Positions 54,901 to 57,900 of a stretch of 64,000 nucleotides of DNA are shown here, piece after piece. Source of the DNA: Escherichia coli (GTDB lineage: Bacteria > Pseudomonadota > Gammaproteobacteria > Enterobacterales > Enterobacteriaceae); the NCBI RefSeq assembly GCF_017348835.2, contig NZ_CP071375.1. One strand, written 5' to 3'. Made by a program: the position numbers. Within the stretch, counting starts at the first letter, position 1; the number at the start of each line of letters is the position of its first letter.

Positions 54901-57900
54901 GGCATCGGGTTACCCTGGGCAATCATGTTGTCCAGTGACGAAAAGTACGTGTTCTGTCTGCCGTTATCCGTTGCGCGGTAATCCGGTGTTTTTGCCTTCG
55001 GGGCCAGCATCTGGGCCACACCACCCAGTATCATGCTGGCTCCAAGTGAAAACAGCATCGTGGTGGCAGAAAAACCACCGGCTGCCAGGGCTGAACCCCA
55101 TAACGCCATCGTTGCGCCGGCAGTGAAGAAAGAGCCCACGATGGCTGCCGCCCCCAGCACAATCTGCAGTCCACCCTTTCCGGCCCCGGCCAGTCGCGGC
55201 ACAATGTGGATGACCGTTCCCTCACCCAGCTGTTCGTGAAGACGGGCGTACACCGCCTCCGGTGCCGTGTCATCACCGGCAATACGTATCTGGTACCAGC
55301 CTTCGTTCATCTGACGGCGGAATCCGGGCACCTGTAACGACAGCGCCCGGATGGCTTCCGCTGCCGTGTTCACATTCAGGCTGATGCGGCGACCAAATCG
55401 TTGTAAATCCCCGTGAAGGCAGATGCGGACCAGTGGCGGTGACGCCAGACAGAATGCGTTCGTCGTTGCCATTTTTCGGAATACCTCTCCCGTTTACTCA
55501 GTTGTTCAGGCAGATGGTGAAGCAGTTCACCGTTGCCGCAGTAAATGGCAGCATGGTTGGGTACCGATGCGCCAAAGCAGCACAGCAGGATATCGCCTGC
55601 CTGTGCCGAGGACAGGGGCACCCGGTAAAAACCAGTGGCCTCCATATTGTCCAGGTAAAGGTTCTGACCGTTGCGCCACCAGTCATCCTCACGCTCAAAA
55701 TCCGGCATATCAATTCCCGCCAGATGGTATGCATCCCGGAACAGCGTGTAACAGTCCGTCACCCCGTGCTCAAAGCGCCGTCCTGTCAGATGTGGCACAC
55801 AGCGGAATTTATGAATGTCCCCCCGGCAGACCAGCCACCAGGACAGTGCACTTTTTATCTGCAGCCGCCGGTCGGCCTCGCTCAGCCAGGGCAGACCACC
55901 GGGATGACTGTGGACCAGTGCCACAATCTCCCCCTGCATCTCTGCCCGCAGCCAGTCTTCCGGTGCAATACGAAAATACGCCTCCGGCTCTGCAGAGATA
56001 TTCACACACGGCAGATACCGCTCCCCCTCCGGCGTTCTCACCACGAAGCCGCACGACTCCGCAGGCACACACCGCCGGGTGTGTGCCAGAATCACTGATT
56101 CTGTCTGTGTCATTGGATTTACTGCGAAAGTTTGTTAATGGAAAGGAAACCGCCAAAATTAGCCACCATGCCGCGCATCTCACACCCGCGCATGCACTTG
56201 CTGCATCTGTCCTTACGGATATCGGTGGTGGGGTTGTCGAACTCATCCGCCACCGCAGGACCGTTATACCCGCATTCATCTCCCCGGTAATCCCACATAC
56301 AGGTGTTCGCCAGCATGATGCGACCAGGAAACAGCGCCCCGTCCGTCTCCGTCGGTGTTGCCAGCACAAACGAGGCTGTCATGGCCGTCAGCTCTGACAT
56401 CTGCTCCACCACCCAGCGGTCGCTCAGCTCCTGCTCCGGGTCCGCTTCCGGATTGCCCGCCACAAAATTCACCGCATCCAGAAAACGGGCATACACCCGG
56501 CGGCGGACCACCGTGGCCCCCACCAGGCTCTGCAGGTCCTCCGCCATCCCGGTGACCAGACCAAACAGATTGGACACCGTCAGCGACGGGCGGGCACTGC
56601 TGCCCTTCCCGTTCATCTCAAAGCCACTGCCGTCAATCGGGTATGCCTGATATTGCCGCCCCTGCCAGGTAACCGCCTCCCCTTTTTCATTCAGCTCATT
56701 GCAGAAAAAATACCGCTCACCACCCTGTACCGTCAGGTCGATTTCCCAGAGTACCACCCGCGGTGACTGCTCTGATTTAACCGACTCGTTCAGACTTTCT
56801 TCGTGAATATCCTGCATCAGTTCACCACCTGCTTAAACTCCGCGCTGAATTCAACCCGCAGCATGCGAACCCGTGATGACCAGGCGGCACAGGTCACCTT
56901 TATCTGCCGCTAGGCATAAGGCGGTGTCCACAGAAACGCCTTCCAGCCACCGTGCTCTGCCAGGAATGCCTCCAGATGTCGGGCCTCCTCCCGGGTCACG
57001 GAAAGCGTCACACGGTATGTTTTCAGGTCAGCATTCAGCCCCGCCGCCATACGCTGCGAATACCCGTCACCAAAACGCACTTCACGCACCGATGGCTGCG
57101 AGTTCACCTCCATATCCGGCTTCACTTTCCAGCGAAATGTTTTCATCGCCTGCCTCCGGAAAAGACGCCGCCATCACGCATCTGCGCCTGAATCTCATCC
57201 TGCGCCCCCTTGCGGGCCATGTCATACACCGCCTTCATCAGCTGCGGCCCCGCCTGTCCGTTGGTGCCGTCGTTCTGAATCACCACGTGATTGTTCTGAT
57301 TAAAACTAATGCCTTCCGCCCGCCGCATCTGCGCCGGACTTCCGGCACCGCCCACATAACCACCTTCCGCATACCCGCGCATCAGACGATACAGGTTGCC
57401 GACGCCAATCCGGCTGGTTGCCTCCTTCGTGAAGACAAACTCCCCGCGGTGGACAATACCGGCAGGTTCGTATTTGCCACCGGTTCCCGTAAATCCTCCG
57501 GTCGCGAAATGGAAGTTCGCCGCCGCAGCCTGAATGGCCGTCCCCGTGGAGGCAGACGCCCCACCACCGAAAGCACCACCCATGGCGCTGCCAATACTCC
57601 CGACAATCCCCACCATGGCCTGCTTCAGAAAAATCTCTGTCAGCATGGAGAGCACAGAACGGGTGAAACCACGCCAGCTCTGTTCGCTGCCGGTCAGCAT
57701 CGCTGCCATATTCTGTGCAATACCGTCAAAGGTCTGCGTGGCCACGCTTTTAACCTGCGAAAAACTGTCCGTCGCACTTTCTGCCCACTCGCCCCAGCCG
57801 GACTTCAGACCGGCCATCCAGCTTCCACGAAGCTGCTCCTCCGCAGACCAGGTGTTCTTCAGTGCAGATGTGGCCTTCGCCAGCGCATCCGGATTATCAC

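Follow-up and report, generated by a model that had tools for sequence, protein, structure and literature searches.

The homologue of lambda tail gene M in the DNA analysed here, a 64,000-nucleotide stretch of the Escherichia coli chromosome called the window below, is broken by an in-frame amber codon at position 79, and this codon is probably a real loss-of-function nonsense mutation that arose through a C-to-T change at a Dcm-methylated cytosine. The window begins with chromosomal genes (fliA through yodB, with dcm and vsr) and passes at about 43.7 kb into a lambda-like prophage, which runs beyond the window end inside the major capsid gene, so that its head, terminase, lysis, and regulatory parts lie outside.

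The interrupted frame of gene M

The features of the M locus are as follows.

56817..57146, minus strand: gene M, lambda gpM homologue, distal tail protein, pseudogene, its 109-codon frame broken at codon 79
56910..56912, minus strand: premature amber TAG, ancestral TGG (Trp79), from comparison with O26 11368 and PE164
56910..57146, minus strand: N-terminal ORF still translatable, 78 aa plus TAG, from the ORF listing
56817..56909, minus strand: in-frame C-terminal remnant, untranslated, 30 codons plus TGA, holding the last two beta-strands, from translation

Translation of the minus strand from 57146 to 56814 gives MKTFRWKVKPD...LWTPPYA*RQIKVTCAAWSSRVRMLRVEFSAEFKQVVN*. After 78 codons the frame meets TAG at 56912-56910 (CTA at 56910-56912 on the plus strand) and then stays open through RQIKVTCAAWSSRVRMLRVEFSAEFKQVVN, 30 conserved codons, to a TGA at 56819-56817. 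This natural stop overlaps the L start ATG at 56817-56815 (TGATG), and the M start ATG at 57146 overlaps the H stop (ATGA). The first-pass annotation of this DNA had read an in-frame amber at 56910-56912, followed by a conserved C-terminus up to the stop overlapping L; its coordinates and reading of the amber are exact, and the continuity of the C-terminus is borne out by the translation, by the Pfam model, and by the homologue alignment described below.

The 330 nucleotides of M contain no indel, and the sole change with respect to intact alleles is at nucleotide 236, G to A on the coding strand, which turns GCC-TGG (Ala78-Trp79) into GCC-TAG. The window M is thus one base apart, TAG versus TGG, both from the M of O26:H11 11368 and from that of PE164, in agreement with the earlier proposal of a single point nonsense mutation from TGG to TAG rather than a deletion. 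The intact common allele is WP_000847304.1, with TGG at codon 79, and it is annotated as a 109-aa protein in PE164. For comparison with known families, Trp was put back at position 79 of the protein. In this form, residues 2-108 are covered by PF05939 (Phage_min_tail; model positions 1-108 of 108, i-E 8.3e-39), and lambda gpM (PDB 8iyk chain M, 109 aa) aligns over residues 1-109 with a phmmer E of 6.5e-58. Around the site, lambda gpM reads PPYEW-RQIKVTC, with Trp79 conserved. Since there is no indel, the nearest alleles are one base off, and both PF05939 and lambda gpM align across the stop, the M locus is, as judged from its sequence, a true interrupted gene and no chance ORF pattern.

Moreover, codon 79 encodes Trp or Tyr in all 23 full-length homologues aligned, and in the same set the last 30 residues belong to the best conserved stretches of M. 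On this alignment the stop is therefore derived and TGG is the ancestral codon, which settles the question that the first-pass annotation had proposed to address by alignment with lambda gpM and related M genes. Of the 5,426 complete RefSeq E. coli genomes, 1,511 contain homologues of M, and all of the best matches show 99.7% identity, which corresponds to one mismatch. A search of these 5,426 genomes with a 61-mer centred on the TAG gave no exact match; 398 records of complete E. coli genomes match it with one mismatch, bearing TGG. Nor does the 61-mer match any of 50,697 phage records exactly.

These data also bear on a natural split gene or a programmed recoding, in which M would be meant to end at the TAG with a separate product encoded downstream. 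A 26-codon GTG-initiated ORF (56897-56817) does lie after the stop. However, the homologues are single proteins of 107-113 aa, the copies in the 1,511 genomes are uninterrupted, and the M of the nearest relative differs by the TAG base alone. Homologues ending at codon 78, which the first-pass annotation had named as the case that would speak against a mutation, are absent, as 424 phage records and the Pfam model span the full length. This explanation was rejected on the full-length alignments, the rarity of the allele, the absence of another TAG in the late genes, and the lack of any evident suppressor, and its probability is next to nil.

The window M is therefore best described, from sequence and gene order, as a pseudogene member of the lambda gpM/PF05939 family. 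It lies between the tape measure gene H and the hub gene L, the position of this family, and it departs from the sequence and synteny features of its members only in lacking an intact ORF of about 109 codons for a complete beta-sandwich, because of the TAG at codon 79. It resembles lambda gpM (PDB codes: 8IYK, 8IYL, 8K35, 8XCG, and 9E7M) in the length of 109 aa, the H-M-L order, and the overlapping stop and start codons, and differs from it in the interruption at codon 79 and in about 17% of the residues. For annotation, M should be labelled a pseudogene (W79*), and the 78-aa product in databases should not be mistaken for a distinct short protein.

The tail module and its nearest relative

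The tail genes follow the lambda type of order on the minus strand, Z-U-V-G-T-H-M-L-K-I-(sodC)-J-lom-stf. The genes adjoining M are given here.

57143..59722, minus strand: gene H, tape measure protein of 859 aa, intact, identical in sequence to the gene annotated in PE164
56119..56817, minus strand: gene L, tail tip hub protein, intact, NCBIfam TIGR01600 phage_tail_L, 379 bits
55376..56113, minus strand: gene K, JAB/NlpC-P60 tail protein, carrying another derived stop (TGT to TGA, 55378-55376)

The earlier description of the tail module as otherwise complete holds for Z, U, V, G, T, H, L, I, J, lom, and stf, which are all full-length, but not for K, which stops early, nor for the tail fibre assembly gene, which is a remnant. 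The stop in K sits two codons before the usual end (C246*), and the same base also gives Y33N in the long I frame; as in lambda, this frame and K share 97 nt. The base at 55376 is A in all five other loci covering the site, and the 245-aa K product of the window has no exact match on record. The Cu/Zn superoxide dismutase gene sodC (54074-54601, plus strand) lies in opposite orientation between the tail genes I and J; this moron is common to the window, the PE164 prophage, and the L003-type prophages described below.

The nearest record to the window is that of the pig isolate E. coli PE164 (NZ_CP114128.1). Over 63 kb, the two are separated by five substitutions and two small indel sites, apart from two differing IS elements. 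Between 47462 and 64000 there are four differences in all, located in J, I, K, and M, which were polarised by comparison with other loci.

51604: J P779P, synonymous, derived in the window
55176: I K99K, synonymous, derived in PE164
55376: K C246* and Y33N in the overlapping long I frame, derived in the window
56911: M W79*, derived in the window

Two of the three substitutions derived in the window within the tail module, those in K and M, result in stop codons.

Proposed origin of the stop at a Dcm site and its occurrence elsewhere

The sequence context of the M amber and the host genes that act on such sites are listed below.

56910..56914, plus strand: mutated Dcm site, CTAGG here and CCAGG in relatives, the changed base 56911 being the inner cytosine
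30375..31793, minus strand: host dcm, DNA-cytosine methyltransferase, 472 aa, intact, 100% identical to the annotated PE164 dcm
29922..30392, minus strand: host vsr, very-short-patch T:G mismatch endonuclease, intact, no differences from PE164

On the plus strand, the site in M reads CCAGG in both PE164 and O26, and its inner cytosine has become T in the window. The methylated C:G positions of Dcm sites make up 94 of the 16,539 bp (0.57%) of the region compared with PE164, so that a change falling on one of them by chance is unlikely. Both dcm and vsr sit within the same window, 26 kb from the amber. CCAGG to CTAGG changes are classical amber hotspots of lacI. The M amber shares with them the change of the inner C of CCWGG that creates TAG, in a host that has dcm and vsr, whereas here methylation and deamination are read from the sequence context. 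In the proposed sequence of events, the inner cytosine would be methylated by Dcm, the 5-methylcytosine would deaminate to thymine and leave a T:G mismatch, this mismatch would escape very-short-patch repair by Vsr, and replication would then fix the C-to-T change. A T:G mismatch in CTWGG/CCWGG, produced by deamination of 5-methylcytosine, is a known substrate of Vsr (PMC2715241).

When the possible deaminations at all 94 Dcm positions were enumerated, 78 fell in tail genes and about a quarter of these (20 of 78) yielded TAG, with one amber-prone position in lom, three in J, two in I, two in K, one in L, two in M, six in H, and one each in G, V, and U. An amber would therefore be a common outcome of this process. 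The second amber-prone site of M is the plus-strand CCAGG at 56880-56884, at codon W89. If the proposed origin is correct, the M amber provides a clean natural example of the textbook Dcm hotspot.

The same context could also produce a base-calling artefact, with a genome that truly reads TGG and a consensus miscalled at the Dcm-methylated CCWGG. The change falls precisely on the cytosine that Dcm methylates, nanopore base-calling errors at modified motifs have been described (PMC11610603), and among the 5,426 complete genomes the TAG allele in this prophage background is without a second record. On the other hand, recent base-callers reach about 99% read accuracy at CCWGG (PMC11610603), and the same TAG is found in at least four other assemblies under separate accessions. 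Also, the window is free of homopolymer indels, which argues against a low-quality consensus, and at the indel sites of PE164 it carries intact dgcQ and yedA, both annotated as frameshifted in PE164. We consequently regard a miscall as unlikely, and a genuine Dcm-site mutation is taken as the reading in what follows. The PE164 frameshift sites (26174 and 29758-29761 in the window, 28571 and 32155-32157 in locus L054) are an A-run and a C-run, and the lesions look like assembly errors or recent events from their sequence; the frameshifted terminase, portal, capsid, and tape measure calls of PE164 therefore need caution. One of these calls concerns the large terminase gene of this prophage, and PE164 contains other likely assembly frameshifts too.

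Public assemblies contain the exact 78-aa M product, and ten of the places where it occurs were read. Six of them are partial genes at contig ends: four break off at CCTG, one at CCTA, and the sixth three bases earlier. In the other four the TAG is internal and the in-frame remnant comes after it, which makes at least four draft assemblies with this stop (GCA_003015285.1, GCA_000194215.2, GCA_005393035.1, and GCA_001607265.1). Among IMG/VR contigs, three carry TAG versus 38 with TGG. From these records, the TAG allele occurs in nature. Drafts are also full of partial gpM, gpL, gpK, gpV, and gpU products of almost every length (loci L006-L011) because contigs break inside multi-copy prophage genes, and a short deposited product is therefore no evidence of a real truncation. 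The idea that contigs break at nucleotide 236 owing to TAG and TGG copies coexisting within one genome was dropped, since breaks are found at many positions of M.

All the TAG-bearing draft assemblies and IMG/VR contigs belong to another prophage type, here called the L003 type, whose tail module is about 93-95% identical to that of the window and whose H protein has 851 aa. Its L gene carries a +1 frameshift after about residue 100 (loci L003, L004, and L005, about 10330-11030), and as judged from sequence its tail module is at a more advanced stage of decay than that of the window. Around the TAG, the L003 type and the window are 100% identical over 57305-56845. This identity brings up an import of the TAG through a short gene-conversion tract from a co-resident L003-type prophage, because a TAG in a second prophage type with such a shared stretch is the footprint that conversion would leave, and lambdoid prophages in one cell do recombine (PMC2669165). 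However, no complete RefSeq E. coli genome, PE164 included, has the TAG 61-mer, so that a donor is not evident in this lineage, and two synonymous differences of the L003 type located 67-70 nt downstream of the TAG are missing from the window. Such an import is thus improbable, and mutation in place at the Dcm site is preferred.

A broader proposal is that the same TAG arose independently at one Dcm site in two lambdoid prophage lineages and, more generally, that Dcm methylation would be a systematic early route to the knockout of tail genes. From the sequence comparisons we regard this as a tentative and rather doubtful idea. In a look-up of truncated products, ends before Dcm-site Trp codons were no commoner than ends before non-Dcm Trp controls, a comparison confounded by contig-end fragments of almost every length and made with one control set. 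If the proposal were true, Dcm deamination could bias prophage domestication toward tail-less elements, in a manner reversible by suppressors or gene conversion.

Predicted consequences for the tail and the prophage

In lambda, M amber mutants make no active tails, and heads without active tails are formed in a non-suppressing host. The lambda sus (amber) M mutants, for example Mam87, are reportedly classical conditional-lethal tail mutants. The window copy likewise has an amber in the same essential tail gene, but it comes from a natural prophage and not from the laboratory. Lambda gpM is the distal tail protein, which assembles as a hexameric ring linking the gpV tube with the gpJ/gpL tip (PMC10721106). 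An AlphaFold model of the restored M places beta-strands at residues 82-93 and 97-106, both past the stop, with a pLDDT of about 64-77 in the C-terminal half and low values over the first 40 residues; from this model we took the secondary structure of the C-terminal half alone. According to this model, the fragment of 78 of 109 residues, without the last two strands, should not fold into the beta-sandwich. Based on the loss of these strands and on lambda genetics, tail assembly from the window M copy should fail, as the first-pass annotation had predicted. In addition, the L start overlaps the natural stop of M, so that L may be translationally coupled to M and hence be translated less; the untranslated gap ahead of L is 93 nt, although an AGGTGG-like motif precedes the L start.

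By analogy with lambda and from the structural model, we infer that infectious particles would be formed only if gpM is obtained in some other way, be it from another prophage in the same cell whose M is intact, after repair of the TAG by recombination, through an amber suppressor, or by readthrough at a low level. The last two would make the stop functionally silent, with a suppressor tRNA or readthrough of a weak UAG-C giving enough gpM. A C does follow the TAG in the window, and C as the fourth base is a comparatively weak termination signal in E. coli. Moreover, six copies of gpM suffice per tail (PMC10721106). Against this, no tRNA gene is present within the 64-kb window, and the tRNAs of the near-identical PE164 prophage have the anticodons TCT, TCG, and CAT, not CTA. 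Also, the TAG is not conserved among relatives, and the neighbouring late genes are without another in-frame TAG. A silent stop is accordingly highly unlikely, and a loss of function remains the preferred reading.

As for a co-resident prophage, PE164 holds a second one at 1,906,675-1,931,702 (locus L055), adjoining tRNA-Ser/hyaA, with tccP2 and a remnant of espV. It shares 99.4% identity with the window over the head-tail module, and its Z, U, V, G, T, M, L, K, I, and sodC products have the same protein accessions. The M-L stretch is that of the window except for the TAG base, M (1,918,675-1,919,004) being intact and otherwise identical. If the source strain of the window keeps such a prophage, rescue of the M defect in trans would be plausible by analogy, and the TAG can in principle be repaired by recombination with the second copy. 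Defective EHEC prophages have been described to interact in such ways, and lambdoid prophages that share a cell can recombine (PMC2669165).

The M amber is most likely real, and it is explained and ordinary, an early step of prophage decay within a genome that is home to several near-duplicate lambdoid prophages. Beyond annotation it matters little in itself; still, it would leave an effector-carrying prophage (nleF, nleH, nleB2, and sodC) tail-defective on its own, which bears on the horizontal spread of virulence cargo. In its effector content (nleF, nleH, nleC, nleB2, and sodC) and in its combination of point defects and IS insertions, the prophage is like the defective lambdoid prophages of EHEC and EPEC (Asadulghani et al. 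2009, PMC2669165), whereas the strain background is different, being closest to the pig isolate PE164.

The effector region adjoining the tail fibres (44347-45866) is itself decayed. By identity with the PE164 annotation, nleF (43723-44292) is intact and nleH (44347-45258) has a frameshift, while a remnant is left of the tail fibre assembly gene (45422-45532) and a fragment of nleC (45579-45866). In the effector gene nleB2 (45900-47946, minus strand), the reading frame is interrupted by an IS5-family (IS903-like) element of 1,057 bp at 46405-47461, with a transposase ORF at 46437-47405 (NCBIfam NF033579, 356 bits) and the target duplication ATTTCCCTC at 46396-46404 and 47462-47470. Among the matches listed for a 20-kb query, each covering 95% of it, neither PE164 nor any of the other 24 records has this insertion.
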